From positions 31,466,430-31,530,429 of the forward strand of contig NC_090399.1 of the NCBI RefSeq assembly GCF_036365525.1: a stretch of 64,000 nt of DNA. Reading direction: 5' to 3'. The notes beneath the pieces were generated by a model that had not been told where the DNA came from, did no database searches, and saw only the letters and a program-made list of their open reading frames with translations. Below, piece after piece: positions 765 through 38,098 of this stretch (positions are counted from its first letter, which is position 1; each line of letters opens with the position of its first letter). Made by a program: the position numbers and the translations under genes. The stretch is from Heterodontus francisci. Its lineage: Eukaryota.

Positions 765-3700
765 CTGTTTGATCCACGGTTGAATGCAGAGCATAAAGCC
801 AAGTGATGTGAGATAACCACCAGGGCTTAATCTCAAATTGTTGCAATAGATTGGCATCGTGGTGCCAAGCTGTGTTTCGTTATGTTCAGTATATCCATTC
901 GACCCCCAATAACGCTTAATGTCACGAAATAGCGAATTCTGTCACTCTAACCTAAGTCTAAAGGTCAATTGCTAGTGCAACATGAAAGCCCATATACGTC
1001 TTTGTCACTGACCTCAATGCCACCCGTAACAACAGGATAAATCAGTTCTGCTGACTGCACATGGTACTCCACAGGCACTGGTGAGAGACTAATAGCTGCA
1101 AACTAACTGTAATTATAGTGCTTGGTGAATTGGAACGTACCTTTCCATAGGAGTGTCGATCGATTGCTCTTCTTGGTTTACATCCTTTGGAACACAAGTT
1201 AAGCTCAGTCAGTGATTACTTGCATAAACGTTTTATATAGCTAAACAAAATGGAACATAATTCCTTACCATGCATAGAGGATCCGATTCAAGTAGATTCC
1301 CATCTTGATTCTGCCACAAAATAAAATATTTATCTACTGAAATATATATTTATATAGAACAAGAAATCCTAATTTATTACAGGAAGGATTCCTCTACGAG
1401 CTACCACTAGAGAAATCATAACTGTCTAATCTTAGAGTTAAAAACATTTTTTTTCAATTAGCATTGTAGCGAACAACTGGAAACTTTCTTCTGGCTATTA
1501 AGAGATAACAGCACAGAAAATAAAACTGGATAGATGAATGTTTCAAGCACACCCTCCCCGCCCGCCCACCTCCCCCCCCCCCACCCCCCACCCCCCCCCC
1601 CCCCCCACCCCACACCACCTAGAATAATTTGACTTACATTATACATCAATGGAAATCTTCTCGCTATCTTTAACATGTCACGAGCACAGAGGGAATAAAG
1701 GAAATATTCCCACTATGTTTAACATATCACTAACACATAGGAGCAAACAAATCCCCTTGGACTCAATCTTTACCATATCACCGAAACATTGGGACCAAAG
1801 GAATGTTCCCATTATGTTTACCTCACATTGAGACCAGAGGAAACTGTCTTACTATTTTTCTGCTTATGCTGTTGTCAACATACAGCAATACAATTAAATC
1901 TTGCTTCATTGTAGTCACGCCCATGCAGATATACATTGCCACATTCAAATAAAATTTCTGCATATAACTGGAAATACCAGAAATATTTTGGATACAAGCC
2001 TTGGATCTTAGGGCTTAATCAATATACATCAGTGGAATTCAGGCTCTCAAGGTGTTCCTCAACACAGATTAAACACTCACACAGGAAGGACTGGTAATGC
2101 TTGGTTGATCTTGGATTGTGCTGAGCATCCTTGGAATTGTACTCAAGCAAGACTAAGCCTTACCCTCCCCATTTTCTGCCACTGGGGATGTGTTATGACC
2201 TTCCATTGGAAAGAAATGGAAATATTGTGGTTGATTTATGAAAAATTAAACGTGAAGGACAGGCATGTTCCCTATGCCTACTTGATATCAGTTGAGTAGG
2301 TACAAATATAATGGCTTAGATGTTGCAGGTGAAGGAATAGGGTTCACTGGTCACCTCGCTGATCGCTGCCCATAAAGCTTTTGTGGACTTTAGAGCACAG
2401 ACTTGTTCGAATACGCCATCTGATACATTGAGGCGCCATCTATAGGGGGGTTTAAGGCATCTGTGAGCAAGGCAGGGAACAGTGAAGCTCGTCAACCAGT
2501 AAGATTGAAGAAAACTTACTGAAAGATGCAGGGGTGGAAGTTCATCTTGAGCGGTGGCACAGAATGGGTGGTATCAGATTGGCTGCCAATTATAACAGCT
2601 CATGATATTTAATCCCATTGACTGCAATGGAACCAAATATCAGGTACTGTGTATAACCAGTGGTCAATCTTCTATCACCTGATTTACACCACATGAGATG
2701 AATTTCTACCCCAGAGTCTAAACCAGGATGTATAAAGCAAGGAGTGTAAATTCGTTTTAAATCATACACAGAAAGCAAAATACAGATTCTAAAATACAGA
2801 TGGGATAAACAGAGAGAGATAGAAAAAAGCCATGGAGAAAAAGTTAATATATATTATCTGAAGAGCAAATATTTGCAGAGCTACAGGTAAAAGGCTGGGG
2901 AGTGGGACTGGCATAAACACATGGGCTGAATGGCCACCTTCTGTACTGTAACCATTCTATGATTCCACGAATATTTTTATTTAAATCTGCTACACTACAT
3001 ATTTTTCAAGGGAATGAGACTTCACACTTGTAAAATTAATTTTTCAGGGTCAAAGAGGTTGTTTGGCTGTAATTATCACACAGTTAAAAAGTCATTTCCT
3101 TCTGAATGAAACAGTTCTAATTATTTTCCACCATTCTTAGTGGGGAACTAGTAGGCGATTACACCAAGTTCAAGCCATTGCATTGCAATCAGTGCCAAGA
3201 CTATTGGCAAGGACTGCAACAGCGCACCCTGTGGAGGAGTAGGCTATTTCTGACAGCAACATCCCAATTTCCACATTTAACTGCGCATGTGCAGACACCA
3301 ACATTTGCTGTCAGATTTACCCCATTATAACAGAGTGCTGTTAGCCTCACAGTTATTCTTATTGCAAAATTTGGCTTATTATACATTCCTGCTAGATAAT
3401 TCATATATGATATTCATTTCCAGTAGCAGGCCAGTTATTTCTATGACCTACTATATCATTTAAGAAATGTACAGTTGGGAATATGTAGTCCAAACTGTAC
3501 TCTGGGAATGTAAGTTTCAAGTGATGTGATTTGCCTTCTTGTTGGGTTACTTACCAGATCTTGCATTCCTGCCAATTGAGACGAGTTTAAACTAGCTGCA
3601 AAATAAATCATGGGAATATAAATACAAAATATACTGGCAGGTCTCCCCGGCATTGCTCATGGCGAATAAGCGGGTGCACTGTTTTATAATAATGATAATC

Positions 3701-6700
3701 TGTGATCAAAAAAGACAGGTAAAATATTACGAGTATAGGTGTTGTTTACAGGAAGTGTATGTTATGTGTAAGATATTTACTATATTGCAAATATATCCAG
3801 GAAACATATAGCCATTCCAGCTTTGCTTAGTTGACAAAACTAAATGGTGAAAGTTGTGGATTCAAGCAACACTCCAGAACCTGAGTGCATAAACTCTCCC
3901 AGGCATTTCCGTCCAGTACTGAGGGAGTGCTGCACTGTCAAAGGTTCCTCATTCAGTGAGGTGTTAAAGAGAAATCACATCTGCCCGTTCCAGTAGACAA
4001 TAGGTCCCATTGCATCATTCAAAGAAGAGTAGGATGTTCTCCCAGTGTGCTGGTCAATATTCCTCCTATAAGCAACCCAACCAAGAAGCAGTTTAATGGT
4101 TATTACTCTCAGTTTGTGGCACTTTGCAGTGGGCAAATTGTCTGTCACTTAATCCATTGGTTGTCGAGTGCTCTGCGAGTCCCCAGTAATTATGTGTGGC
4201 AAATCAACTGACTGCATTTTAAAAGAAACAAACGCCATAATACATTTCAACAAAGTCAATTGAAACAATTATATTTTTAACCTAACCCACCCATCAGAAA
4301 TCTGATGAGATTGGGTGGAACATTGGTTTTACACCCGACGCAATATTACACTTCGTTGAAATCGGGAGAGTAATATTGAGTGTGGGGTGGCGGGTAGGGG
4401 GGAAAGGGGTGAAAGGGACATTGCGCCCGATCCTGTGGGATCCCTGCACCTCCAATGTCTCTTAGAACATCAGACAACGGAATGTCTCAGGTATTCATAC
4501 ACAAATATCACAAATAGATCAGAATCATTGAATAGAACAGTGCAGCACAGAAGGAAGCCATGCTGCCTGATGAGTCTGTGTGGGCCCTTTCACAAAGCAT
4601 CCAGTTAGTCCTCACTTCCTCACTCTTTCCCCATATCCTGGCAATTTTCCCCATTCTTCAAGAATGTATCCATTTCCCTGGAATTGTAAATTTGCTTTCT
4701 CTACACAACTTTGAGCTTTGCCCCTCTGCATTACTACATACAGACCCTTTGGATTAGAGACCTATTGAGGGATGAAATTGTAATTATCTATAGTGATGTT
4801 ATTTTTGTTAAATGGGACAGAAAAAAAGCAGTGAATATATGAATAGGAAGGGAATAGAGGGATATGGGCCCCGGAAGTGCAGAAGGTGTTAGTTTAGGCA
4901 GGCATCAAGATCGGCGCAGGCTTGGAGGGCCGAATGGCCTGTTCCTGTGCTGTACTGTTCTTTGTTCTTTGTTCAGTGGTGCCTTATGATAAATCAGATC
5001 CCAGAGACTGAGGATATGGATTCTTGTACAAATGTAACAAACTTTTCTAAAGAGATGAATATGAACACTTTTTAAGAATACAAAATATTTTCATGCTGGC
5101 AATTTGTGATCTTGATAAGTTTTGTTTAAAACAAAGCCATTAAATGATCTATGACAACTGTAAGGGTACATTTTGAAAAGCCTGATTTTAGGCATTTCCC
5201 TGAACCATAACCTGGGTATCAAATTGTTAGCTTTTAATCTAGTTTTAAAGCTTTGGATAGTAATTGCTTCTGTTCTAATATCCCCATGGAAGCTTATAGT
5301 GTTTGTCCATGGATTAAAAAACAACTTTTCTTACCCGCCGTGGAAGTGTTTTCTGGAATATCTGTTTCTTCTCTGCAAAGCAAGTAGATGATACAAGTCA
5401 ACTGCATGTTCTCATACCACAACAATTATGACTTATATTTATATAGCAACTTTAACATAATGAAACATTGCAAGTCACTTCACGGGAGCATTATAAAACA
5501 AAATACGGCACTGAGTCACATAAGGCTATATTAGGTCAGATGACCAAAAGCTGAGACAAAGAGTTAGGTTTAAAGGAGTGTCTGAAAGGAAGAAAATGAG
5601 GTAGAGAGGCGGAGAAATGTAGCGAGAGTATTCCACAGTTTTGTAGCATAGAAACATAGAAAAGCTTAAGGCATAGAAGTAGGCTGTTCTGCCCATCATG
5701 TCTGTGCGAGTCAAAAAAGAGTTATCCAGCCTAATCCTTCCAGATCACGTTCTGTAGCTCTGCAAATTACAGAATTTCAAGAATTTTTTTTTTTAATGCG
5801 ATGAGGTTTTCTGCCTCTACTGCCCTTTCTGGCAATGTGTTCCAGACCCCCAGCACCCTCTAAATGAAAACATTACTGCTCAACTCTCCTTTAATCCTTT
5901 GACCAATTGCTCTGTGTATTTCGTATATGAATGTATATTTATAACTTACTCACCTTTGCACCTGTTGAACATCTAATGAAAAGGGATATACAAAAGAAAA
6001 GTGGATTAGAAAATACATTTCTTATTACTTCACTCTTATTTCTTATCACCACCAGTTCTGCACATGGAGCAACACTGACTTCAAAATAATTAATTGTGGG
6101 AAGTGATTCTATATGTATGAGAGACATGATAAAGCCACTGTATGAATTTAAATTGTTTCATTTTTAAGGAATTTTACCTTAAAATGCATCTCTAGAATAA
6201 AATAGGCTGAGGGCTGGCCTAAGAAAAGTCATTAAAGTTCTGAAAAGGTTTGATGGGGTAGACTTAAAGATGGTGTTCCTTCTTGTGGGGAGAGTTCAAA
6301 ACTTGTGGTCATAAATATAAGATAGTCACTAATAAATGCAGTAAAGAATTAAGGAGGACCTCTAGCGGGACATATTGAGAGATTTGTTAGCAAAGCTTAT
6401 GGGATCTTAGGCTTCATAAATAGAGGTATTGAGTACAAAAGCTGGGAAGTTATGCTGAACCTTTATAAAGCTCTGGTTAGGCCCCAACTATGGTATTGTG
6501 TCCATTTCTGGTCACCACACTTTAGGATGGAAATGAGAGGGTGCAGAGCAGATTTACAAGAATGGTTCCCAGGGATGGACAATTTTAGTTCTAAGGTGAG
6601 ATTGGAAAAGCTGGTATTGTTCTCCCTGAAGCAAAGAAGCTTGAGGGGGGTAAAAACAGAAATTGCTAGAAATACTCAACAGGTCATGCAGTGGTGTGAT

Positions 6701-9700
6701 ACAAGTGAGTGGCAGTTAAGAGTCAACCACGTTGCTATATGTCTGGACTCAAATGTAGGCCAGACCAGGTAAGGACGGCAGATTTCCTCCCCTGAAAGAC
6801 ATTAGCTGGAGTGGTGAGATTTGAACTCATGTCTCTGGAATATTAATCCAGGCCTCTGGATTGCTAGCCTTGTAATATTACCACTATGCTGCCATCCCCT
6901 CTCATAATGTCCCCCATTTTGCATTAACACCCATCATAAATTCCTACCCCACTTCACAAAAATAACATCCCATTTATTTTTATTCTTCTACAGGTGCTGG
7001 AAGGTGGGATTAGAATGGTGGCTATTTTTTTCAGCCAGCACAGACATGATGGGCTGAATGGCCTGTTTCTGTGCCGTAACTTTTCTATGGTTCTAACATT
7101 GCGTTACTTTGATTCCAAAGGTCACAATACTGGATCTCAGGATTCACATCCATGATTTTTTGATTTGTTCATATAGGTAACCTTTCTAATCCATCCTTAA
7201 TTTCCATGAAAAGGTGTTGGTGGGTTTCTTCTTGAAGCAGCTTCTCTTATAACTAAGTATCTCGTACTTGAGAGAGCATCATGAGTCAAATGAAGTTACT
7301 TGCAGGTCCAAGTATGATGATATATTCCCTGCTGAGATTTTCCAAAGTTCTGTAACTTTCATAGCCATCCCCCCATTGTCAAATTATCGTATTCATTAGA
7401 TTTAACTTCACAGCTAACTAGAGTATGGTTTTAACTGACGACCACTGTGTTGTTCGCCCTGTACCATCGCTACTACATCACTGTACCCATCTGCCAATGT
7501 ACTCCTAGGACTGCCAATTGAATACCTCAGTGTTACGACCAGGTAAGAAAGGGGTCTAGGGATCCCTCTCAGCCTTCACCTGGTCTTACCATAACAGGGT
7601 TTAATTATCTTTATTTTAGCTTTTGTCATAAACCTTCTGAAGAAGGGTCACTGACCCGAAACTTTAACTCTGCTTCTCTTTCCACAGATGCTGCCAGACC
7701 TGCTGAGTGGTTCCAGCATTTCTTGTTTTTATTTCAGATTTCCAGCATCCGCAGTATTTTGCTTTTAGGTTAGTCATGTGACTAGCTGGTCTGACCACGT
7801 CTTGGCTCTATGGATTGTATCATCATAGCAGGATTTGGAAAACACTTCCCTGCCTTCAAAGTCTGGTGCTCAAAGTCCATTGTGGGTCAAATAGATAAGG
7901 CAAGTAATGTCACTTGTTCCTATTGGTATATAAATGTCGTCCAGCCAAGTGTCTGGCAGCCCTTATAACAGGCCTTCTCTTCTTCCCAGCAACAATTTGA
8001 AATTTAATGTCCATATGGAAACATTAATATGCCTCATTCTTGGCAGGTGGGGGTCTAGCATGACACTCGGGCTTAATTATTCAGATGTAAATCTTCCCAC
8101 CAGAATATTTCAAAACCTTAGCACTTGTCAAACAGCAAAGAATTTGCATCCTCACCTTTCTTTCTGCGTAACTGCACATAGCGGAGTGCAACGATTAGAA
8201 ATATGCCGATTTCCCCTGCTGCACTGATGAACAGGATTAACAGTACAGTCGTGATAGATTTTGTTTTCTCTATGGAGAAGAGAGCAAGTCAGATATAAGC
8301 ATAGGGACATAGGAACAGAAGGGGGCCATTCAACCCCTCCAGTCTGTTCCATCATTCAATTAGATCATTCTTGATCTCAATCTTAATTCAGCTACCATCT
8401 TCGATTTATATCCCTTACTACCATTGCCTAAAGAAATCCATCAATCTCAATTTTCCTGCCCTCGATAGCTTTCTGGGGAGAGCTCCAGATTTCCACCACC
8501 CTATGTGTGAAGAACTATCTTCTGAATTCACTGTTGAATAGCCTAGCTCTAATTTTAAGGTTATGCCCGCCCCCCCCCCCCCCCCACCCCCCCCCCCCCC
8601 CCCCACCCCGCTCTTGTTCTTGACTGTCCCATCAGAAGGAATAATTTATCTCCATGTAAATACCAAATCCTTTACTCATCTTGAACACCACATCCCGAGC
8701 ATTATTCTGGTATGTATTGAACCTCCAAGGTTAGCATATCCTTCCTGTGATGCCAAGAACTGAATGCAATAGTCCAGATGCAGTCCAAACAGATCTTGAA
8801 GTGACTGTACAATAACTTTCCCACTTTTGTAATCCAGCCTATCGATGGGATAAAAACTAACATTCCATTTGCTCTTATGTTTAGGTTTTGTACTTGTCCT
8901 CTAGCTGTTAGAATAATCAGCTCAGATGACTTCCAAAGTGACTACCAGACTCTTTTGTAAGTTCCAGGAGCACGATTTTCTTTTGATAAGCTCTTACTAA
9001 CTGAAACAGCAGGCACTCGGGATGGTGGTGGAATGGTGATGGAAGCACTTATGGTAAAAGCTACACAGCTATTTTAACATTGCAACTATCCCACTTACAA
9101 CAGGCAGAACAAATTAAAATCCACTCCACCCAGTCCCAGAGGGGCAAAGGGCAGTGTCTGACCCACTGCAACACCCAGCCCCAGAAGGGGAAAGGACAGT
9201 GTCTGACCTATTGCCCCACCCAGTCCCAGAGTGGGAAAGGACCGTGTCTGACCCATTGCCCCACCCAGTCCCAGAGTGGGAAAGGACAGTGTCTGACCCA
9301 TTGTCCCACCCAGTCCCAGAGTGGGAAAGGACAGTGTCTGACCCATTGTCCCACCCAGTCCTAAAGTATATGGATAATTGCAATTTCAGTTTGATGATAT
9401 TGCAGACAAGAGAATGACTGACCTATCACAGTGAGATATGTTCCTGTTCCATATTTCTTGTCGAGTCCTCTCATTTTCACGCTGCAGTAATACATCCCGA
9501 AATCGTTCACCCTCACCTCCTTTATTCCAATGGAAGCGTTGAAAAAATCCTCTTTTTTGGGCCAAAAGATCCGTCCTCTGTACTCTGCTTCTCTATTAGA
9601 AACTTCTGTTCCATTTCTGGCATTCTTGTACCAGTTATAACTCTCCTTCCCAAGAGACACATAGGCTGTGTGGGTGCAGGGGATGAGCACTGACTCCCCT

Positions 9701-12700
9701 TCCACCGCCTGAATACTCGGCAACTTCTGAATAACTCTGAAGTCGGCGCTAATTCCTAGAAACCAAATAAATTTAAAATTGTTACATTATGATTGGGAGT
9801 TGGAGCTTCCTTGGACAGCCGTGCAGGAGCGGATATGTAGGGCCGATTTTCAAAGTCGACTTGCTTGTGCCAGCACATCCCCTTTTTATATATGTAACCA
9901 ACCAACAAGTTTGCTTTCCAACGTATAATGTTTTTAATATAGACGTTCCTCCGCTATTTACACACAATTTGAATAAAAAGGTGGAAGGGAGTTTCTCAAA
10001 ATGGAGACGTGTGACCAGTGGTGTTCCACAGGGATCCGTGCTGGGACCACTGTTTGTGATATACATAAATGATTTGGAGGAAAGTATAGGTGGTCTGATT
10101 AGCAAGTTTGCAGACGACACTAAGATTGGTGGAGCAGCAGATAGTGAAGGGGACTGTCAGAGAATACAGCAGAATATAGATAGATTGGAGAGTTGGGCAG
10201 AGAAATGGCAGATGGAGTTCAATCCGGGCAAATGCGAGGTGATGCATTTTGGAAGATCCAATTCAACAGTGAACTATACAATAAATGGAAAAGTCCTGGG
10301 GAAAATTGATGTACAGAGAGATTTGGGTGTTCAGGTCCATTGTTCCCTGAAGGTGGCAACGCAGGTCAATAGAAGGCATACGGCATGCTTTCCTTCATCG
10401 GACGGGGTATTGAGTACAAGAGTTGGCAGGCCATGTTACAGTTGTATAAGACTTTGGTTCGGCCACATTTGGAATACTGCGTGCAGTTCTGGTCGCCACA
10501 TTACCAAAAGGATGTGGATGCTTTGGAGAGGGTGCAGAGGAGGTTCACCAGGATGTTGCCTGGTGTGGAGGGCGCTAGCTATGAAGAGAGGTTGAGTAGA
10601 TTAGGATTATTTTCATTAGAAAGACGGAGGTTGAGGGGGGACCTGATTGAGGTGTACAAAATCATGAGAGGTATAGACAGGTTGGATAGCAAGAAGCTTT
10701 TTCCCAGAGTGGGGGATTCAATTACTAGGGGTCACGAGTTCAAAGTGAGAGGGGAAAAGTTTAGGGGGGATATGCGTGGAAAGTTCTTTCCGCAGAGGGT
10801 GGTGGGTGCCTGGAACACGTTGCCAGCGGAGGTGGTAGACGCGGGCATGATAGCGACTTTTAAGATGCATCTAGACAGATACATGAATGGGCAGGAAGCA
10901 AAGAGATACAGACCCTTAGAAAATAGGCGACAGGTTTTGATAAAGGATCTGGATCGGCGCAGGCCTGGAGGGCCGAAGGGCCTGTTCCTGTGCTGTAATT
11001 TTCTTTGTTCTTTGTATTACATACATTGCCCCATATTCAATTCCACTCACTTCGGGAGCACCGAATATCACAGGTGTGGCATAAAAGGCAGTAAAAGTCA
11101 TCGCGCCTGTTTTGCGTCCCCATCTGTGTCTAATTTCACCCCCAGTCTGTAACTGCTTATGTATAATGGTTAAATAGTCTCCTCTCTGTAGCTAAGGCTG
11201 ATTCTTTCTTGGGAGTCCACCGCAGCGCAGCCATTGTGACAGATGCGCCAATTGAAGATAGGGCCCCACATTGTTCAGCTGATTCTCCCCCACCCCCATT
11301 GCTCATTTGATATTGCAGACAGCAAAATGACTGACCTCTGACGGTGAGATTTGTTCCTGTTCCATATTCCTCGCCCAGTTGCAGTATTGTCACTTTGCAG
11401 TAATACACCCCGGAATCGTTCACTCTCACGTCCTTTATTTGTATGGACGATTCTCCAGTATGAAAGAAATCCTCTTTGTCTCCGTAGATCCGTCCTGTGT
11501 ACTCTGCTGTCCCATTGGAAACTTCGATGCCATTCCTGTACCAGCTATAATACCCTATTACATTGGAGGCGTTGGCTGTGTATGTACAGTGGAGGAAGAC
11601 TGTCTGTCCTTCCACTGCCAGAATCCTGGGCTCCTTTTGAATAACTGTGAACTTCTCAGCGTTACTTCCTGGAAATCAGAAAAAAAAGTCTCTGCTATCT
11701 GATTGGAAGTTGGAACTTTGAGAGACAATCGTGCAGGTTGATGCAGAGGGATGGGAACAGGCACGGTGGAGTGTAAATACCGGGATGGAACGGTTGGGCC
11801 GAATGGCCTTTTTTGTGCCGGACATTCTATGTAATTATGCAGTAAGGCAAAAGCTGATTGACGTGTGTCCATCACTGGATAATGACAGCAACTTATATTT
11901 ATCTAATGTCTTTAATAATAACGAAATGTCCTGAGGCACATCACAGGAGGATTAAAAAACATTTGACAGCAAGCCACATATAATCGGAACAGGAGTAGGC
12001 CATTCAGCCCATTGAGCCGACAGGAGAATGACTGACCTCTCACAGTGAGACTTGTTCCTGCTCCATATTTCTCGCCCAGTTGCATCAATTGCACTTGGCA
12101 GTAATACACACCCGAATCGTTCACTCTCACGTCCTTCATTAGTATGGACGCATCTCCAGTATGAAAAAAATCCTCGCTGTGTCTGTAGATCCGTCCTCTG
12201 TACTCTGCTGTCTCATTGGAAACTTTTATGCCATTTCTGCCATCTTTGTACCAGCTATAAGATCCGATCATGGAGACGCTGGCTGTGCAGGTGCAGGGGA
12301 GGAAAACTGTTTGTCCTGCCTCTGCCAGAGTCCTGGACAACTTTTGAATAACTGTGAACCTCTCAGCCTTACATCCTGGAAATCAGAAAAAGAAGATTGG
12401 ACGTTGGAACTTTGAGAAAATGATTAAGGCAAACAGCCAAAAGCTTGGTCAAAGAGGTTGGTTTAAGGAATGTCTTAAAGGAAGAAAATGAGGTGGAGAT
12501 GTTTAGGGAGGAAATTCCAGAGCTTAGGGCCTTGGCCATGGAAGACACGGCCACCAATGGTGGAGCCATTAAAGTCGGGGATGCTCAAGAGACCGGAAAT
12601 AGAGGAGCACAGATATGTCAGAGGATTGTGGGACTGCGGGAGATGACAGTAAGGAAGGTGTGAGGCCATGACGGCATTGAAAACCACGATAAGATTTTTT

Positions 12701-14418
12701 AAATCGAAGCATTGCTTAATCAGGGGCCAGTGTAGGTCATTGAACACAGTGGGAGATAGGAGAACGGGACAGGGTGCGAGTAAGAATACAGGCACCAGGA
12801 TTTTGGATGACCTTATGCTTAGAGAGTAGAATGTTGGAGACCAGCTAGGAGTGCATTGGAATAGTCAAGTCTAGAGGTAACAAAGGAATGGATGAAGGTT
12901 TCAGCAGCAGATGATCTGACATGGTGTATGTAAAAACAAGAAATGCTGGAAATACTCAACAGGTCTGGCAGCATCTGTGGAGAGAGAAGCAGAGTTAACA
13001 TTTCAGGTCAGTGATCCTTCTTCAGAACTGGCAAATATTAGAAATGTCAAAGGTTATAAGCAAGTAAAGCGGCAGTGGGGCAAGAGATAACAAAAGAGAA
13101 GGTGTAGCTAGGACTAGGTCACAGAATAGCTGACCAGAAGGTCATGGAGCAAAGGCAAACAATATGTTAATGGTGTGTTGAAAGACAAAGCATTAGTACA
13201 GATAGCGTCATCGTCATACAGCACTGAAACAGGCCCTTCAGCCCACCAGGTCTGTGCCAACCAACATCCACCCATTTATACTAATCCTACATTAATCCCA
13301 TATTCCCTACCATCTACTTGCACGAGGGGCAATTTACAATGGCCAATTTACCTATCAACCCTCAAGTCTTTGGCTGTGGGAGGAAACTGGAGTACCTGGC
13401 AGAAACCCACACAGTCACAGGGAGAGCTTGCAAACTCAGCACAGGCAGCACCCAGAAGTGAACCCAAGTCTCTGGAGCTGTGAGGTGGCAGTGCTAACCA
13501 CTGCACCACTGTACCAGGTGTTAACAGACTGAAAATTGAACAGCAGCAATTACAAACATGAAAAAACAATGGGTAAGGAAACTGAACAAACTAAGATGAA
13601 ATAAAATAAACACACAAAAATATATAAAAAAGAAAAAATAACTAAAAATCAAAGTAAAATGGGGTGCCCGTCATGCTCTGAAATTACTGAACTCGATGTT
13701 CAGTCCAGCAGGCTGTAGTGTGCCTAATTGGCAAATGAGATGTTGTTCCTCGAGCTTGCATTGATGTTCACTGGAACACTGCAGCAATCCCAGGACAGAG
13801 ATGTGAGCATGAGAGCAGGGGAGAGTGCTGAAATGGCAAGCAACCGGAAGCTTGGGGTCCTGCTTGCGGACTGAGCGGAGATGTTCCGCAAAGTGACATG
13901 GTGTATAGTTTGGCAATGTTATGGGGATGAAAATAGGTGGTCTTAGTAATGCAGTGGATATGTAGTCAGAAGCTCATCGCAGGGTTACATGTGACACCAA
14001 GGTTATGAGTAGTCTGGTTCAGCCTCAGATACTTGCCGGGGAGAGGGATGGTGTCAGTAGCTAGGGAACAGAATTTGTAGTTGGGACTGAAGGCAATGGC
14101 TTTGTTCTTCACAATATTTAACTAGAGGAAATTTCTGCTCATTCAGTACCGAAAGTCTGACTAACAGCAACAGTGGAGGAGTCGAGAGAGGTGATGGTGA
14201 GGTTGAATAAATAACATCTTGGGCAATATAGCAAAAAGGCTGATAGTAATTGAGCAGTGCATTTGCACTGTGCCCACCTCGCTTTTGTATTGCCCATTCA
14301 GTATTGCCCTTTTTTGCACAGTCACCCAAGACAAACCTATACCCCTTAAGAAACAATGCAATGTCCACTTACCCAAGAGGGCAGCCAATATCCATAGGAT
14401 CCATAGGATGGGGCTCAT
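599..14418 (-). CDS. NCR3-like: NKp30/NCR3-family type I receptor with three VJ-type Ig domains; spliced model join(14373..14418,12037..12375,11336..11668,9423..9755,8156..8269,5954..5972,5335..5372,3555..3595,1269..1310,1141..1184,599..764), 1515 nt, 504 aa
   Basis: All introns are GT-AG and the phases chain without a stop (1,1,1,1,1,2,1,0,0,2). The V domains align by eye with human NKp30 (EVRNGTPEFRGRL vs EVSNGTAEYTGRI; IRDVRGHD vs IKDVRVND; CRVEVLGLGVGTGNGTRLVV vs CKVTILQLGEEYGTGTNLTV). The ectodomain and TM are more certain than the tail. Confidence 0.85.
1141..1184 (-). CDS. NCR3-like: 44-nt cytoplasmic micro-exon DVNQEEQSIDTPME(R)
   Basis: Acceptor ttgtgttccaaag after an 84-nt intron, donor AAG|gtacgt, phase 0 to 2. 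Confidence 0.7.
1269..1310 (-). CDS. NCR3-like: 42-nt cytoplasmic micro-exon NQDGNLLESDPLCM
   Basis: Acceptor ttattttgtggcag, donor ATG|gtaagg, phase 0-0. Confidence 0.7.
1638..1667 (-). CDS. Possible optional 30-nt exon IARRFPLMYN
   Basis: Donor AAT|gtaagt, weaker acceptor catgttaaag. Phase 0-0 fits between the 3555 and 1310 exons but is not required. Confidence 0.3.
3555..3595 (-). CDS. NCR3-like: 41-nt cytoplasmic micro-exon (A)SLNSSQLAGMQDL
   Basis: Acceptor tttattttgcag, donor CTG|gtaagt. Only the phase-1 frame is open; ends in phase 0. Confidence 0.75.
3850..4170 (+). mobile_element. Degenerate DeuSINE (SacSINE1-like)
   Basis: gtactgagggagtgctgcactgtc...gaagagtaggatgttctcccagtgtgctggtcaatatt, shared with the copies at 45.5, 54.1 and 62.1 kb. 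Confidence 0.55.
5335..5372 (-). CDS. NCR3-like: 38-nt cytoplasmic micro-exon EETDIPENTSTA
   Basis: Acceptor cttgctttgcag, donor CGG|gtaaga, phase 2 to 1. Confidence 0.75.
5954..5972 (-). CDS. NCR3-like: 19-nt cytoplasmic micro-exon (D)VQQVQ(R)
   Basis: Acceptor cccttttcattag, donor AAG|gtgagt. Phase 1 to 2 is corrected exactly by the next 38-nt exon. Confidence 0.72.
7531..8065 (-). mobile_element. Internally deleted solo LTR (related to the 25945 and 58389 LTRs), with a Penelope terminal fragment at about 7615-7768
   Basis: TG...CA termini, flanks ctcag/ctcgg (5 bp, 1 mismatch). The ends match the reverse complement of the other LTR ends (cccccacctgccaaga; cacctggtcgtaaca). Confidence 0.75.
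8156..8269 (-). CDS. NCR3-like: Transmembrane exon EKTKSITTVLLILFISAAGEIGIFLIVALRYVQLRRKK
   Basis: Acceptor ctctcttctccatag, donor AAG|gtgagg, 114 nt, phase 1-1. About 24 hydrophobic residues followed by a basic stop-transfer RRKK. Not in the ORF track. Confidence 0.88.
9126..9361. repeat. 45-bp minisatellite, about 5 copies
   Basis: The unit CCCACCCAGTCCCAGAGTGGGAAAGGACAGTGTCTGACCCATTG(T/C) is repeated head-to-tail. Confidence 0.93.
9423..9755 (-). CDS. NCR3-like: Ig V domain 3 (VJ in one exon): GISADFRVIQ...LIPC...YNWY...DFGMYYC...YGTGTYLTVI
   Basis: Acceptor ttggtttctag, donor G|gtcagt, 333 nt, phase 1-1. Overlaps ORF 9361..9723. Confidence 0.93.
9980..11013 (+). mobile_element. 5'-truncated CR1 LINE, antisense in the V2-V3 intron
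   Basis: RT motifs GVPQGSVLGP, KFADD, LEYCVQFWSP; (ttctttg)n tail. Confidence 0.93.
11336..11668 (-). CDS. NCR3-like: Ig V domain 2 (VJ in one exon): GSNAEKFTVIQ...FLHC...YSWY...DSGVYYC...YGTGTNLTVR
   Basis: Acceptor tttctgatttccag, donor G|gtcagt, 333 nt, phase 1-1. Lies within ORF 11157..11615. Confidence 0.93.
12037..12375 (-). CDS. NCR3-like: Ig V domain 1 (VJ in one exon): GCKAERFTVIQ...FLPC...YSWY...DSGVYYC...YGAGTSLTVR
   Basis: Acceptor tttctgatttccag, donor G|gtcagt, 339 nt, phase 1-1. Canonical Cys, Trp, DxGxYxC and J-like GxGT motifs. Confidence 0.93.
12930..13893 (-). mobile_element. 5'-truncated Penelope-like element (GIY-YIG C-terminus, 3'UTR and terminal repeat)
   Basis: ORF 13671..13916 (HFAEHLRSV...PVACHF...LGTLQPAGLN). 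13-bp TSD tgacatggtgtat at 12917-12929 and 13894-13906. Confidence 0.85.
13205..13515 (-). mobile_element. tRNA-derived V-SINE (HE1-like) inside the Penelope element
   Basis: Reverse strand reads cagtggtgcagtggttagcac...gagtttgcaagctctccctgtg...ttcctcccac. Confidence 0.8.
14373..14418 (-). CDS. NCR3-like: Leader exon MSPILWILWILAALL(G)
   Basis: ATG at 14418 and a hydrophobic 15-mer. Phase-1 donor G|gtaagt at 14372. Acceptor ccttccactgcag just upstream (exon starts 14422). Confidence 0.88.
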
Positions 14419-23900: not shown

Positions 23901-25487
23901 TTTCTTCTCCTTTGGCCTCCTTGTCTCGAGAGACAATGGGTAAGCACCTAGAAGTGGTCAGTGGTTTGTGAAGCAGCACCTGGTGTGGCTAAAAAGGCCA
24001 ATTCTAGAGTGACAGACTCTTCCACTGGTGCTGCAGATAAAATTGGTTGTCGGGGCTGTTACACAGTTGGCTCTCTCCTTGCGCTTCTGTCTTTTTTCCT
24101 GCCAACTGCTAAGTCTCTTCAACTCCCCACTCTTTAGCCCTGCCTTTATGGCTGTCCACCAGCTCTGCCAATCACTGGCAACTGACTCCCACGACTTGTG
24201 GTTAATGTCACAGGACTTCATGTTGCATTTGCAGACGTCTTTAGAGTGGAGACAGGGATTGCCGGTGGGTCTGATACCAGTGACAAGCTCGCTGTACAAT
24301 GCGTCATTGGGGATCCTGCCATCTTCCATGCGGCTCACATGGCCAAGCCATCTCAAGCGCCGCTGGCTCAATAGGGTGTATATGCTAGGGATGTTGGCTG
24401 CCTTGAGGACTTCTGTGTTGGAGATATGGTCCTGCCACCTGATGCCAAGGATTCTCCGGAGGCAGCGAAGATGGAATGAGTTGAGACGTTGCTCTTGGCT
24501 GACATACGTTGTCCAGGCCTTGCTGCCATAGAGCAAGGTACTGAGGACACAGGCTTGAAACACTCGGACTTTTGTGTTCCGTGTCAGTGTGACATTTTCC
24601 CACACTCTCTTGGCCAGTATGGACATAGCAGCAGTCGCTTTTCCTATGAGCTTGATGATTTCTGCATCGAGAGACAGGTTACTGGTGATAGTTGAGCCTA
24701 GGTAGGTGAACTCTTGAACCACTTCCAGAGCGTGGTCACAGATATTGATGGATGGAGCATTTCTGACATCCTGTCCTATGATGTTCGTTTTCTTGAGGCT
24801 GATGGTTAGGCCAAATTCGTTGCAGGCAGCTGCAATCCTGTCAATGAGTCTCTGCAGACACTGTTCTGTGTGGGATGTTAATACAGCATCGTCAGCAATG
24901 AGGAGTTCCCTGATGAGGACCTTCCGTACTTTGGTCTTCGCTCGAAGATGGGCAAGGTTGAACAACCTACCATCTGATCTTGTGTGGAGGAAAATTCCTT
25001 CTTCTGAAGACTTGAACGCATGTGAGAGCAGCAGTGAAAAGAAGATCCCAAACAGTGTAGGTGAGAGAACACAGCCCTGTTTCACGCCACTCAGGATAAG
25101 AAAGGGGTCTGATGAGGCACCGTTATGCTGAATTGTGCCTTTCATATTGTCATGGAATGAGGTGATGATGCTTAGTAGCTTTGGTGGACATCCAATCTTT
25201 GCCAGTAGTCTGAAGAGACCACATCTGCTGATGAGGTCAAAGGCTTTGGTGAGACCTATGAAAGCAATGTAGAGGGGCATCTGTTGTTCGCAGCATTTCT
25301 CCTGTAGCTGGTGAAGGGAGAACAGCATGTCAATGGTGGATCTCTCTTCTCGTAAGCCACACTGTGCCTCAGGGTAGACACGCTCAGCCAGCTTCTGGAG
25401 TCTGTTTAAAACAACTCGAGCGAAGACTTTCCCCACTATGCTGAGCAGGGAGATTCCACAGTAGTTGTTGCAATCACACAGTAGTTG
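23901..25487 (-). mobile_element. 5'-truncated RTE-clade LINE with an open 513-aa RT-to-C-terminus frame, inserted antisense in a CR1 fragment
   Basis: ORF 23958..25499 (GVKQGCVLSPTLF, LIADD, FTYLGS, RRLRWLGHV). TSD ttgggc(a/g)gacaagt at 23887-23900 and 25488-25501. Confidence 0.93.
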
Positions 25488-25944
25488 TTGGGCGGACAAG
25501 TGGTAGATGAAATTTAATGCAGAGAAGTGTGAAGTGGTTCATTTTGGTAGCAAGAACAAGGAGAGGTTCTCCCACTGTAGTATATCGGGGAGCTGGAAAC
25601 TGTGTAAAACCCCTCGGGCTGCATGTACCAGAGAATGTTTATGGTGTGTAATGCAAATATACATGTCCTGGAAGTGATTAGCAAATTCTGCTACCTTGGG
25701 TCCACAGTGACAGACAATCTGTCCCTTGATGCTGAGCTTGATACAGGTGTAGGGAAAGCAGCTACCAGCTTTGGCCAACTTGTGGAATGTGGATAGGATA
25801 GCACCAGACTGACCCTTAGGACCAACCTGATGGTTTATAGGGCATGGGTTCTCAGTGGGTTCTTGCTGTATGGCTGTGAGACATGGGCGACTTACAGCAA
25901 CCAGGAAAAAAAGCTCAATAAATTCCATCTTTGCTGTCTGCAAT

Positions 25945-32194: not shown

Positions 32195-35100
32195 TTCATT
32201 TTGTTTGCACTGGAGTGCTGACTTGGGGCTGCATTAGAGTGCTAAAGTGGGAGTTTTGTGACTGAGTGAGTTAGGTGAGGAAGGAGTGAGGAGCTCCTTT
32301 CATTTCCTACCTGTCCTCAAAGAGCGTGAGGGGAGCCAAGAGTTTCCAAAGAGCACAGCTGACTGGTGAGTAAGTCCTGGTGGGTATTTTTCAAACTGGA
32401 TTGAATTGTAAGTCATTGTTTTAGCAAGACTTAGATTTTTTTTTTATTATAATAGTCTTCTAAAGTTTTAAATTTAAAGGGTTTTGTCATGGCAGGAGAG
32501 CTTAAAGCCGTGGTTTGCTCCTCTTGCTGCATGGGGGAATCCAGGAACATTTCCAGTCCCCGGGACCAGCATGTGTGCAGGAAGTGTGTCCAGCTGCAGC
32601 TCCTGGAAGATCAGGTTTCAGAGCTGGAATGGTGACTGGAAACACTCTACAGCATCCGTGAGTCTGAGAGCATCGTGGATAGCACGTTTAGAGAGGTGGT
32701 CACACCGCAGCTGAAGGGACTTGAGGAAGGAAGGAAATGGGTGACCACCAGGCAGTCCAAGAGAAACAGGCAGGTAGTTCAGGAGTCCCCTGCTTTTAAA
32801 TCGGTATTCTATTTTGGAGGCTGATGAGGCTGCTTCCTCCTGGGAGTGCTGACAGAGCCAAGCTTCTGGCACCACAAGCAGCCTGTCTGCACAGGAAGGG
32901 AGAAAGTGAGGAATAGTAATAGGGGATTCTATAATCAGGGCAACAGATAGACGCTACTGTGGCCATCAACGTGACTCCAGAATGGTGTGTTGCCTCCCTG
33001 GTGCCAGGGTCCAGGATGTCACTGAACGGCTGCAGGGCATCCTGAAAGGGGAGGGTGATAAGGCAGAGGTCATGGCACATGTTGGTACCAATGACATAGG
33101 TAGAAAGAGGGATGAGGACTTGCATCAAGAATTCAGGGAGTTAGGCAGAAGACTAAAAAACAGGACATCTCGGGTTGTAATCTCTGGATTACTCCCAGTG
33201 CCACGTGCGAGCGAGTATAGAAATAGGAGAATAGCACAGATGAATGCGTGGCTTAAGAGTTGGTGCAGGAGGGAGGGTTTTAGATTCCTGGACCACTAGG
33301 ACCGTTTCTGGGGAAGGTGGGACCTGTACAAGCGGGATGGTCTCCATCTGAACCAGAGGGGGACGAACATCCTTGCTGGCGGGTTTGCTAGTGCAGTTGG
33401 GAGGAGTTTAAACTAATCTGGCAGGGGGAGGGGACGCAGACACCTAGCAGAATAGGGACACAGCTAAACAGAGGAAAGCAAACAAGTCAGAGGGAATACA
33501 GCGGAAGTAAGTTTCAAGGGAGTAAGACCAGGATGGATGGCCTCTACTTTAATGCCAGGACTATGACAGGCAAAACGGATGAGTTAAGGGAAAGGATTGA
33601 CACGTGGAATTGTGATATAGTAGCCATCACAGAGACATGGTTGAGGGAGGGGCAGGATTGGCAGCTCAATATCCCGGGATATAGAATCTTCAGGCGAGAC
33701 AGAGGAAGGGTTAAAGAGGAGGGGGCATTGCAATATTAGTTAAGGAGTCAGTTACTGCAGTAAGGAGAGATGATATCTTGGAGGGGGCATCAAAGGAAGC
33801 TTTATGCGTAGAGTGTAGGAATAAAAAAGGGAAGTCAAATTGCTCGGTGTTTATTATAGACCCCCAGATAGTCAGCGGGAAATTGAGGAGCAAATATGTG
33901 CGCAATTCACAGAGGTGTGTAAAAATAATAATAGGGTCATGATATTAGGTGATTTCAACTTTCCCAACATTAATTGGGATAGTTATCATGTTAAGGGCTT
34001 AGATGGAGTGGAGTGCTTAAAATGTATACAGGAGAACCTTTTAGCTCAATATGTAGAGGATCCAACAAGGGAGGGTGCAGTGCTGGACCTAATTCTGGGG
34101 AAGGAAGCCGGACAGGTGGTTGATGTGTTGGTGAGGGAGTATTTTGGTGATAGCGACCACAATATGGTACAGTTTAAGCTTGTTATGGAGAAAGAAATAG
34201 ACAAGTTGCAAAAAAAGGTTTTGGATTGGGGGAGAGCGAATTTTAGTAAAATAAGGAAGGATCTGGCCAAGGTAGACTGGAAAGAGTTACTTGTCAGCAA
34301 ATCTACAGAAGATCAGTGGGGAGCATTCAAAAAGGAAATGGGGAGGGTACAGGCCCAACATGTTCTCTCTAGGGTAATAGGTAGGAGCAACAAGACCAGA
34401 GAACCATGGATGACCAGAAACATTCAGGGAACGATGAGAAGGTAAAGAGAGGCTTTTAGCAAATACCAGGAAAGCAAATCAACGGAAGCATTAGTGGAGT
34501 ACAGAAAGTGTAGGATGGAGCTTAAGAAAGCAATTAGGAGAGCAAAGAGGGGATATGAGAAAGCTCTGGCTGGTAAAAGTAGGGAAAATCCCAAGATATT
34601 CTATAAGTATATCAATGGGAAGAGGATAACCAGGGAAAGAATAGGACCTAGGGAAGGGAGTGTAGATAGTCTCAGTCATCTCATTATCAAAAAGGAGGAG
34701 GTGTTGGGTGTCTTGCAAAGCATTAATGTAGATAAGTCCCCAGGGCCTGATGGGATCAACCCCAGAATACTGAGGGAGGCAAAGGAAGAAATTGCTGGGG
34801 CCTTGACAGAATTCTTTGCATACTCATTGGCTACAGGTGAGGTCCCAGAGGACTGGAGAATAGCCAATGTTGTTCCTTTGTTTAAGAAGGGTAGCAAGGA
34901 TAATCCAGGAAATTATAAGCCGGTGAGCCTTACGTCAGTGGTAGGGAAATTATTAGAGAGGATTCTTATGGACAGGATTTACTCCCATTTGGAAACAAAT
35001 GGACTTATTAGCGAGAAGCAGCATGGTTTTGTGAAGGGGAGGTCGTGTCTCACTAATTTGATTGAGTTTTTTGAGGAAGTGACAAAGATGATCGATGAAG

Positions 35101-38098
35101 GAAGGGCAGTGGATGTTATCTAAATGGACTTCAGTAAAGCCTTTAACAAGGTCCCTCATGGCAGACTGATACAAAAGGTGAGGTCACATGTGATCAGAGG
35201 GGAGCTGGCAAGATGGATACAGAACTGGCTCGGTCATAGTAGACAGAGGGTAGCAGTGGAAGGGTGCTTTTCTGAATGGAGGGATGTGACTAGTGGTGTT
35301 CCGCAGGGATCAGTGCTGGGACCTTTGCTGTTTGTAGTATATATAAATGATTTGGAGGAAAATGTAGCTGGTCTGATTAGTAAGTTTGCGGACAACACAA
35401 AGGTTGGTGGAGTTGCGGACAGTGATGAGGATTGTCAGAGGATACAGCAGGATATAGATCAGTTGGAGACTTGGGTGGAGAAATGGCAGATGGAGTTTAA
35501 TTCGAACAAATATGAGGTAATGCATTTTGGAAGGTCTAATGCAGGTGGGAAGTATACAGTAAATGGCAGAACCCTTAGGGGTATTGACAGGCAGAGAGAT
35601 CTGGGCGTACAGGTCCACAGGTCACTGAAAGAGGCAATGCAGGTGGATAAGGTAGTCAAGAAGGCATACAGCATGCTTGCCTTCATCGGTCTGGGCATAG
35701 AGTATAAAAATAGGCAAGTCATGCTGCAGCTGTACAGAACTTTAGTTAGGCCACACTTAGAATATTGCGTGCAATTCTGGTCGCCACACTACCAGAAGGA
35801 TGTGGAGGCTTTGGAGAGGGTACAGAAGAGGTTTACCAGGATTTTGCCTGGTCTGGAGGGCATTAGCTATGAGGAGAGGTTGGATAAACTCGTATTGTTT
35901 TCACTGGAACGACGGAGGTGGAGGGGCAACATGATAGAGGTTTACAAAGTTATAGGCGGCATGGACAGAGTGGATAGTCAGAAGTTTTTTCCCAGGGTGG
36001 AAGAGTCAGTTACTAGGGGACATAGGTTTAAGGTGCAAGGGGCAAAGTTTAGAGGGGATGTGCGAGGCACGTTCTTTACACAGAGGGTGGTGAATGTCTG
36101 GAACTTGTTGCCGGGGGTGGTAGGTGCCGTAGGTGGAAGCAGGTACCATAGAGACGTTTAAGAGGCATCTTGACAAATACATGAATAGGATGGGAATAGA
36201 GGGATATGGACGCCGGAAGTGCAGATGGTTTTAGTTTAGGTAGGCATCAAGATCGGCGCAGGCTTGGAGGGCTGAATGACCTGTTCCTGTGCTGTACTGT
36301 TCTTTGTTCTTTGACCCATTAGGGACCAAGGGGGAAATATGTGGGTGGAGCCAGAGGACATTGGTAGGGTGTTGAATGAACACTTCATATCTGTCTTCAC
36401 CCAAGAGAATGAGGATGTAGATATGGAACTCAGAGAGAGAGACTGTGAGGTTCTTGAGCAAATTGTCATAGGGAGTGACAAGATATTGGAGGTTTTGGCA
36501 GGCTTAAAAGTGGACAAACCTCCAGGTCCGGATAATTTGTGTCCCTGGATGCTGTGGGAGGTGAGGGTGGAGATTGCAGGGGCTCTGACCCAAATTTTTA
36601 ACTCCTCTCTGGCCACGGGGGAGGTGCCAGAGGACTGGAGAACAGCTAATGTGGTCCCACTATTTAAGAAAGGTTGTAGAGAGATAAGCCACGGAACTAC
36701 AGACCAGTGAGTCTCACGTCAGTGGTAGGGAAACTATTGGAGAAAATTCTGAAGGAGAGAATCTATCTCCACTTGGAGAGGCAAAATTTGATTAGGAATA
36801 GTCAGCATGGCTTTGTCAAAGGGAGGTCATGCCTAACAAATGTGATTGAATTTTTTGAGCATGTGACCAGGCGTATAGATGAGGGTAGTGCAGTTGATGT
36901 AGTTTACATGGATTTCAGCAAAGCCTTTGACAAGGTCCCACATGGGAGACTTATCAAGAAAGCAAATGCACATGGGATACAAGGTAACTTGATAAGGTGG
37001 ATTCAAAATGGGCTTAGCTGTAGGAGACAGAGAGTGATGACAGATGGCTGTTTTAGTGACTGGAAGCCAGTGTCCAGTGATGTACCACAGGGATCTGTGC
37101 TGGGTTCCCTATTGTTTGTCATTTATATAAACGACATAGATGACTATGTGGGGGGTAGGATCAGTAAGTTCGCGGATGACATAAAGATTGGCCAAGTGGT
37201 TAACAGTGAGGTTGAGTGTCTTGGGTTACAGGAAGATATAGATGGGATGGTCAAATGGGCAGAAAAGTGGCAGATGGAACTTAACCCTGAAAAGTGTGAG
37301 GTGATACACTTTGGAAGGAGTAATGTGACACCGAAGTATTCAATGAATGGCCTGACACTGGGAAGTTCCGAGGAACAAAGGGACCTTGGTGTGTTTGTCC
37401 ATAGATCTCTGAAGGCAGAAGGGCAGGTTAATAGGGTGGTGAAAAAGGCATATGGGACACTTGCCTTTATCAATCGAGGCATAGATTACAAAAGCAGGGA
37501 GGTCATGTTGGAGTTGTACAGAACTTTGGTAAGGCCACAGCTGGAGTACTGTGTGCAATTCTGGTCGCCACATTATAGGAAGGATGTGATTGCACTGGAG
37601 GGGGTGCAGAGGCGAATCACCAGGTTGTTGCCTGGGATGGAACATTTAAGCTATGAAGAGAGGTTGGATAGGCTTGGGTTGTTTTCGCTGGAGCAGAGAA
37701 GACTGAGGGGTGACCTGATCGAGGTGTATAAGATTATGAGGGGCATGGACAGGGTGGATAGGGAGCAGCTGTTCCCCTTAGTTGAAGGGTAAGTTACTAG
37801 GGGACACAAGTTTAAGGTGAGCGGCAGGAGGTTTACGGGGGATTTGAGGAAGAACTTTTTTACCCAGAGGGTGGTGACGGTCTGGAATGCCCTGCCTGGG
37901 AGGGTGGTAGAGGCGGGTTGCCTCACATCCTTTAAAAAGTACCTGGATGAGCATTTGGCACATCATAACATTCAAGGCTATTGGCCACGTGCTGGCAAAT
38001 GGGATTAGGTAGACAGGTCAGGTGTCTTTAGTGCATTGGTGCAGACTCAATGGGCCGAAGGGCTTCTTGTGCACTGTATTATTCTGTGATTCTGTGAT
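32195..38098 (+). mobile_element. Near full-length but mutated CR1 LINE (5'UTR, ORF1 Zn-finger and SGNH esterase, ORF2 APE-RT), interrupted by a second CR1
   Basis: ORF1 CRKCVQLQ and HVGTNDIGRK; APE ITETWL, GDFNFP, SDH; RT 36707..37792; (attctgtg)n tail. In-frame stops are present. Confidence 0.92.
34649..36312 (+). mobile_element. 5'-truncated CR1 inserted co-directionally into the host CR1
   Basis: Has its own (ttctttg)n tail. gacc is duplicated at 34645-48 and 36313-16, and removing the insert restores ...aataggacccattagggacc... Confidence 0.8.

Follow-up and report, generated by a model that had tools for sequence, protein, structure and literature searches.

Paired activating and inhibitory immunoglobulin receptors are known from systems of the KIR, SIRP and CD300 type, and the NCR3 family of sharks has reportedly been treated by Kinlein et al. 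in 2021. According to passages of PMC12227049, shark NCR3 has been described as a multigene family, and NCR3 represents an NK-receptor lineage that can be traced back to sharks and is related, as a VJ gene without rearrangement, to the antigen receptors. In human NKp30, as described in parts of PMC7409301 and PMC13107469, Arg143 is located at the end of a 15-residue stalk and contacts the Asp of zeta. Excerpts of PMC13107469 further state that both carboxylates are required in acid-base assemblies, which E-to-Q or D-to-N replacement compromises and which mostly use a DxxxT/S motif, that CD16A and CD64 bind zeta or FcR-gamma through Asp or Asn within an FxxD/NT motif, and that a Glu of CD79A and a Gln of CD79B form a dyad in the interface of their dimer. 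As well, Q, E, D and N were described in part of PMC1190194 to promote oligomerisation of model membrane helices. Among the papers searched, no account was found of shark NCR3 with an acid in the membrane helix, although Kinlein et al. 2021 and its supplements may contain one, nor any that joins NCR3, cartilaginous fish and ITIM. This does not imply that the residue is unpublished.

The window analyzed here, a stretch of 64,000 nucleotides from the horn shark Heterodontus francisci, carries on its minus strand a three-V-domain, MHC-linked gene of the NCR3/NKp30 family, which matches RefSeq models of this species. The window contains ten exons of this gene, namely, one leader, three V, one membrane and five short tail exons, all with open reading frames and AG/GT borders. 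Joined, they encode residues 1-449 of RefSeq model P0006, which is misnamed 'protein turtle-like', and three further tail exons of the same gene are located outside the window, past its start. The leader exon (14373..14418 from the ATG, with a GT donor), which is the start of P0006, is followed by IgV exon 1 (12037..12375; Pfam V-set, E 2.6e-13), IgV exon 2 (11336..11668; E 8.9e-14) and the NKp30-like IgV exon 3 (9423..9755; E 4.1e-11), all of which are single-exon, VJ-type IgV. The membrane exon (8156..8269, read from 8269 to 8156; 114 nt, phase 1-1) encodes KTKSITTVLLILFISAAGEIGIFLIVALRYVQLRRKK, which comprises a 5-residue stalk, a helix of about 21 residues and a basic stop-transfer RRKK, and its Glu codon GAA (8211..8213) specifies residue 370 of P0006. 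The cytoplasmic part of the gene in the window consists of mini-exons at 5954..5972, 5335..5372, 3555..3595 and 1269..1310 and a further exon at 1141..1184.

Each of the V exons (starting at 12375, 11668 and 9755 on the minus strand) begins like the second half of a split leader, suggesting that the three-V ectodomain arose through exon duplication. The number of V domains varies from 1 to 5 across species, and the isoforms of Carcharodon differ in V content. At 9114-9360, the intron that separates V3 from the membrane exon contains a tandem repeat of about 40 bases, and long, reverse-transcriptase-like LINE open frames at 23958-25538 (-), 46975-48471 (-), 33825-37792 (+) and 9777-11152 (+) occupy, as judged by eye, the remainder of the window and one intron.

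The membership of this gene in the NKp30 family, which had been proposed from the letters alone, was confirmed by a PDB search, in which human NKp30 provided the best 4 of 127 matches (E 4e-10); a search with the three-domain isoform at a threshold of E 1e-15 returned 0 matches. Among the MHC class I exon matches in the genome, 59 of 64 were found on the same contig (C29), the nearest being about 0.6 Mb away (32.07 Mb compared with 31.47 Mb), which places the gene in linkage with the MHC. Likewise, this contig carries 27 of the 28 related V exons, in two clusters. The closest of these V exons are followed by two classes of membrane exon, namely, four copies of the Glu-type exon and another exon, present in three copies, which bears an Arg in the upper helix and is found in the same cluster (L005 7151-7261, L007 6961-7071 and, on the plus strand, L008 about 6795-6884). 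The nearest Arg exon lies about 35 kb from the Glu-type gene. The V exon of the Arg-type loci is open in L008 and L005 and stop-broken in L007, and the L005 gene is arranged tail to tail with the Glu gene of the window. Moreover, whole short-tailed Arg-type models were found in Carcharodon and Cetorhinus, both of which also possess Glu-type models with Glu at the site.

The V domains of the two classes are intermixed in the tree. V3 of the Glu gene shares 82% identity with its sister in the tree (99/91), the V exon that precedes the nearest Arg exon, so that a linked activating sibling with a similar ectodomain is present. The combination expected of an activating NKp30, an upper-helix Arg and a short tail, was found in the three neighboring exons; the Glu gene has a tail of about 120 aa and neither Arg nor Lys in columns 9-29 of its membrane exon. 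The layout of the cluster is that of a paired-receptor family, and the Glu exon would be the membrane anchor of the long-tailed, inhibitory-type (ITIM-type) arm of a shark NKp30/NCR3 paired-receptor cluster, the inhibitory function being suggested by the motifs of the tail. A second cluster is located at C29 14.9-15.4 Mb (L013-L019), and further divergent NKp30-like V genes are found at L009-L012 and L015; among the candidate membrane exons of these genes are one that contains a Lys (L013) and uncharged exons.

The Glu codon itself was confirmed at 8211-8213 by contigs of four sequencing runs (X1, X3, X5 and X6), all from one sample, possibly the source animal of the assembly. The DNA runs (X1 and X3) yielded contigs that span 8039-8372 at a depth of about 4 and show 0 differences. 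The contigs of X5 and X6, runs that are guessed to be RNA, no run being recorded as such, cover 8156-8273, also with 0 differences, end at the edges of the exon and have no cover in the flanking intron bins. Their 4 extra letters are identical to the final 4 letters of V exon 3 and would fit a splice from V3 to the membrane exon. A second contig in X5 and X6 bears the differences of the Glu paralogue, and the Glu codon is unchanged there. In addition, Glu is present at the same ungapped column in Carcharodon (great white), Cetorhinus (basking shark), Stegostoma (zebra shark) and one horn-shark paralogue. A sequencing error or a private Glu, to which we attach practically no probability, is ruled out by the contigs and the conservation in orthologues, as the same codon occurs in DNA and exon-bounded contigs and Glu recurs in 4 other genes of 4 species. 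The loss of tail exons and of one tyrosine in this copy, together with stops in neighboring V exons, would suit a private mutation in a decaying gene, but the ten exons in the window all remain open, with AG/GT borders.

The original prediction described the helix as a charge reversal, in which the position of the adaptor-binding Arg is taken by Leu. Its statement that no such Arg is present in the helix is correct; the reversal, however, had to be given up. The Arg exon belongs to separate genes (three here, with models in Carcharodon and Cetorhinus), and the exon-only coding similarity between Arg-type and Glu-type exons did not exceed that of shuffled sequences in any of the 12 pairs (27-410 of 500 shuffles scored at least as high). 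When 30-nt flanks, which contain shared splice signals, were included, 7 of the 12 pairs dropped to ≤8 of 500 shuffles. Direct descent from Arg to Glu or from Arg to Leu is not supported. Since the Arg-type exons are separate and show no similarity beyond shuffles, the residue-level mapping of Arg to Leu cannot be made, and the PDB alignments to NKp30 stop at the end of the V domain and never reach the stalk and the helix. The Glu gene is, on this comparison, the putative long-tailed partner of separate neighboring Arg genes, and not a charge-flipped activating receptor. The Arg-type exons fit the Arg143 arrangement of human NKp30, and a zeta/FcR-gamma-type exon with the usual Asp was found in the horn-shark genome, suggesting that an ordinary adaptor is available to the Arg type.

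For comparison, 141 other proteins of the family search were examined, of which 44 passed the membrane filter. A basic core residue was present in 13 of these membrane cores and absent from 31, D/E/N/Q/H occurred in 0/44, and an uncharged membrane segment was combined with an ITIM-like tail in 13/44. Because long-tailed receptors normally lack Arg, as in these 13, the helix is ordinary in this respect, and its unusual part is, by this comparison, the Glu rather than the absence of Arg.

The polar site was followed in 14 distinct but related genes, 10 from 7 shark species and 4 from 3 ray species, the 4 ray genes being placed by ungapped register, which agrees with the alignment for its two rays. 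Redundant isoforms and the models without a membrane exon (Scyliorhinus P0003, Mobula P0024 and Stegostoma P0025) were left out. The Scyliorhinus model retains the tyrosine tail, which may reflect a skipped exon, an assembly gap or a soluble form. The residues at the site are E in five genes, Q in three, T in two, and H, N, S and G in one each. The conservation of the Glu is thus partial: Glu is found in 5/14 genes and the site is polar, but it is not always acidic (Q, T, H, N, S, G). D/E/N/Q/H occupy the site in 10/14 genes and any other column of 9-29 in at most 1/14, and a bulky hydrophobic residue occurs at the site in 0/14, with mostly bulky residues in the neighboring columns. The four horn-shark copies of the exon have Glu, Glu, Thr and Thr; in the Thr-bearing paralogues (L023 and L024), a stop-broken V3-like exon is retained, with the used V exon on one side of it and the membrane exon on the other. 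Heterodontiformes, Lamniformes and Orectolobiformes, each a supported clade in the tree, all include genes with Glu, suggesting that this residue is probably ancestral in these sharks.

The site is located 1-3 residues off the helix center in the Glu gene, and -2 to +4 over all genes, with the center set by a hydrophobicity scale. E370 is on the same face as S366, A367 and L363. The residue at i-4, on this face, is S or G in 10/10 shark genes, and that at i-3 is A/S/G in 10/10; i+1 is never Thr (14/14), and i+4 is F/L/V in 14/14, so that there is no support residue of the DxxxT/S type. No stalk Cys was found. The AAGxxG patch of small residues, within which the original prediction placed the Glu, is only in part a family feature, as its G19 is private to the horn-shark Glu gene (1/14), although columns 16, 17 and 22 are small in 12/14, 10/14 and 13/14, respectively. 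Column 31 (window about 8178-8180) contains a juxtamembrane Cys in 8/10 shark genes and Tyr in the Glu gene and Stegostoma. This Cys is a possible palmitoylation site.

We lean, with modest confidence, to the interpretation that the Glu pairs helices through hydrogen bonds, likely so that a receptor which signals by its own tail can associate with itself, and that the copy in the window is a disarmed or decoy version. Such a receptor would need no adaptor-binding Arg. The side chain of E, Q, N or H, together with the small residue one turn above, may form a helix-helix contact, which would stabilize dimers or small oligomers and shield the polar group, and the neighboring helix would most likely be a second copy of the same receptor. 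As the site tolerates Q, N and H, and E-to-Q or D-to-N replacement harms acid-base assembly, hydrogen bonding fits better than a salt bridge, and this tolerance, combined with the absence of DxxxT and FxxDT, makes helix pairing more likely than a salt bridge with an Arg chain. On the same basis, homodimerization, one of the two options in the original prediction, is the likeliest use of the Glu, and Q, N, H and T at the site in orthologues make the other, pairing with a basic partner, less likely. However, the site holds only T, T, S or G in four of the 14 genes, including horn-shark P0011 with its full ITIM tail, so that some copies can do without a strongly polar residue, and the partner may also be another chain.

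A quite improbable alternative is that the Glu chain acts like CD3 or DAP10, with an acidic helix pair which would bind the Arg of a neighboring short-tailed NCR3 paralogue and lend it a tyrosine tail. The two gene types do occur together in horn shark, and in Carcharodon and Cetorhinus alongside Glu, but a zeta/FcR-gamma-type gene with Asp is already available to the Arg type. Similarly, Glu and Arg are 19 and 18 codons upstream of the splice donor, but their depths do not match, since 14 apolar residues precede and 9 follow the Glu, as against 6 before and 14 after the Arg. Relatives of the gene carry YxxM, and DAP10 signals through a PI3K motif according to part of PMC13107469; yet the site is occupied by Q, N, H, T, S or G in 9/14 genes, when E-to-Q compromises such assemblies, i+4 is Ser or Thr in 0/14, and the stalk Cys is lacking. 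A complex prediction for two Glu helices and one Arg helix, run without alignments or controls, scored 0.02 against a mark of 0.34, which speaks neither for nor against this arrangement. If true, which we rate as correspondingly improbable, there would be a two-paralogue shark NKp30 receptor, with Glu long-tailed chains as Ig-domain signaling subunits for adjacent Arg chains, and a CD3/CD79-like arrangement would have arisen inside an MHC-linked VJ gene family thought to be near the antigen-receptor ancestor. In that case, the ITIM-less copy would turn the inhibition exerted by such complexes into silence or activation.

Slightly less probable still is a role like that in CD16A, CD64 or Fc-epsilon-RI alpha, in which the acid or amide would couple the receptor to zeta or FcR-gamma dimers and allow activation without Arg. 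The FxxD/NT motif is absent here, with A/S/G instead at i-3 in all shark genes and no Thr at i+1, and the relatives sharing the site retain an ITIM-like tail. The original prediction that acidic adaptors would not be recruited was too strong in general, as CD16A and CD64 use Asp or Asn (in the relevant part of PMC13107469), although the shark gene lacks their motif. Another explanation, which we consider unlikely but less so than the preceding two, is that the polar residue serves quality control or trafficking, by causing ER retention or the turnover of chains that remain unassembled, or that the site tolerates polar residues and has no specific partner. A lone charged residue in a helix typically leads to ER retention unless masked, according to parts of PMC5856207 and PMC13107469, and seven different residues occur at the site; nevertheless, none of the 14 shark and ray genes has L, I, V or F there, amid mostly bulky neighbors, and a small residue on the same face is conserved in sharks. 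Retention and assembly roles are not mutually exclusive.

Among the 14 other models whose tails were scanned, ITIM was present in 10 and YxxM, a PI3K-type motif, in 10, and YxxM, ITIM-like (I/V-x-Y-x-x-I/L) and acidic YxxL motifs occurred all together in 9, the rest being partial or divergent. In the copy of the window, the acidic YxxL (YEEL) alone remains, in one of the three exons past the window start, and a motif scan of its tail found no ITAM and no YxxM; the exon at 1141..1184 reads IDTPM, with the Tyr lost, where relatives have YxxM. Compared with two paralogues, three tail exons, the ITIM exon included, are missing from this copy in the assembly and in the RefSeq models built on it. 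Collinearity breaks at about G000:C29:31,462,851 (L020), 3.6 kb before the window start, and the deletion skips about 6.0 kb and about 3.9 kb relative to the two paralogues, with a junction which is clean in the assembly (a short shared ATGG and no N). The missing exons gave no blastn match in the fetched DNA of the gene and its flanks.

The window's copy would thus be a disarmed or decoy member of the inhibitory lineage, without ITIM. It may bind ligand and pair but signal weakly, having neither the ITIM exons nor the YxxM tyrosine, and might serve as a decoy or dampener, possibly of an ITIM-bearing paralogue via the shared Glu. Against an inhibitory arm as such, the tails of the family also bear YxxM and acidic YxxL, which could activate. 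A remnant of an optional tail exon, which is used by paralogue P0014, is present at 2081-2185 (-) of the window with an in-frame stop. A conserved acidic motif, D-Y-G/E-Y-D/E-E-L, was also observed at L020 5323-5356 (-) and in relatives, which we take to resemble a hemITAM; it shares tails with ITIM-like and YxxM motifs, making a mixed-signal tail.

E370 and its natural Q, N, H and T variants offer one mutable residue to probe the membrane assembly of early jawed-vertebrate immune receptors, the question at stake being hydrogen-bonded self-pairing versus acid-base pairing. As well, the presence of intact copies next to the one without ITIM allows paired-receptor turnover to be studied as a natural experiment. 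If self-pairing alone holds, the result is a modest one for comparative immunology.

Compared with known systems, the shark gene resembles CD16A, CD64 and Fc-epsilon-RI alpha in being a ligand-binding chain with an acid or amide in the helix, but lacks FxxD/NT. It shares an acidic helix residue with CD3, DAP10 and DAP12, and its relatives share YxxM, whereas DxxxT/S, the stalk Cys and ITAM are absent and the acid is not invariant (E in 5/14). Similar to CD79A and CD79B, it combines an Ig ectodomain, a Glu or Gln in the helix and cytoplasmic tyrosine motifs of its own; unlike them, it has NKp30-like V domains, a tail without ITAM and no evident disulfide partner. Single-exon VJ-type V domains and location on the MHC class I chromosome are shared with NKp30/NCR3, from which the shark gene differs in its three tandem V domains, a stalk of 5 residues rather than 15 (from part of PMC7409301), the lack of an Arg143 equivalent, a mid-helix Glu and a long multi-exon tail. 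Finally, as in pairs of the KIR, SIRP and CD300 type, adjacent genes with near-identical ectodomains bear either a basic helix and a short tail or a long ITIM-type tail; in contrast to those pairs, the window's copy is without ITIM, and the long-tailed arm in sharks has a conserved, strongly polar membrane residue.
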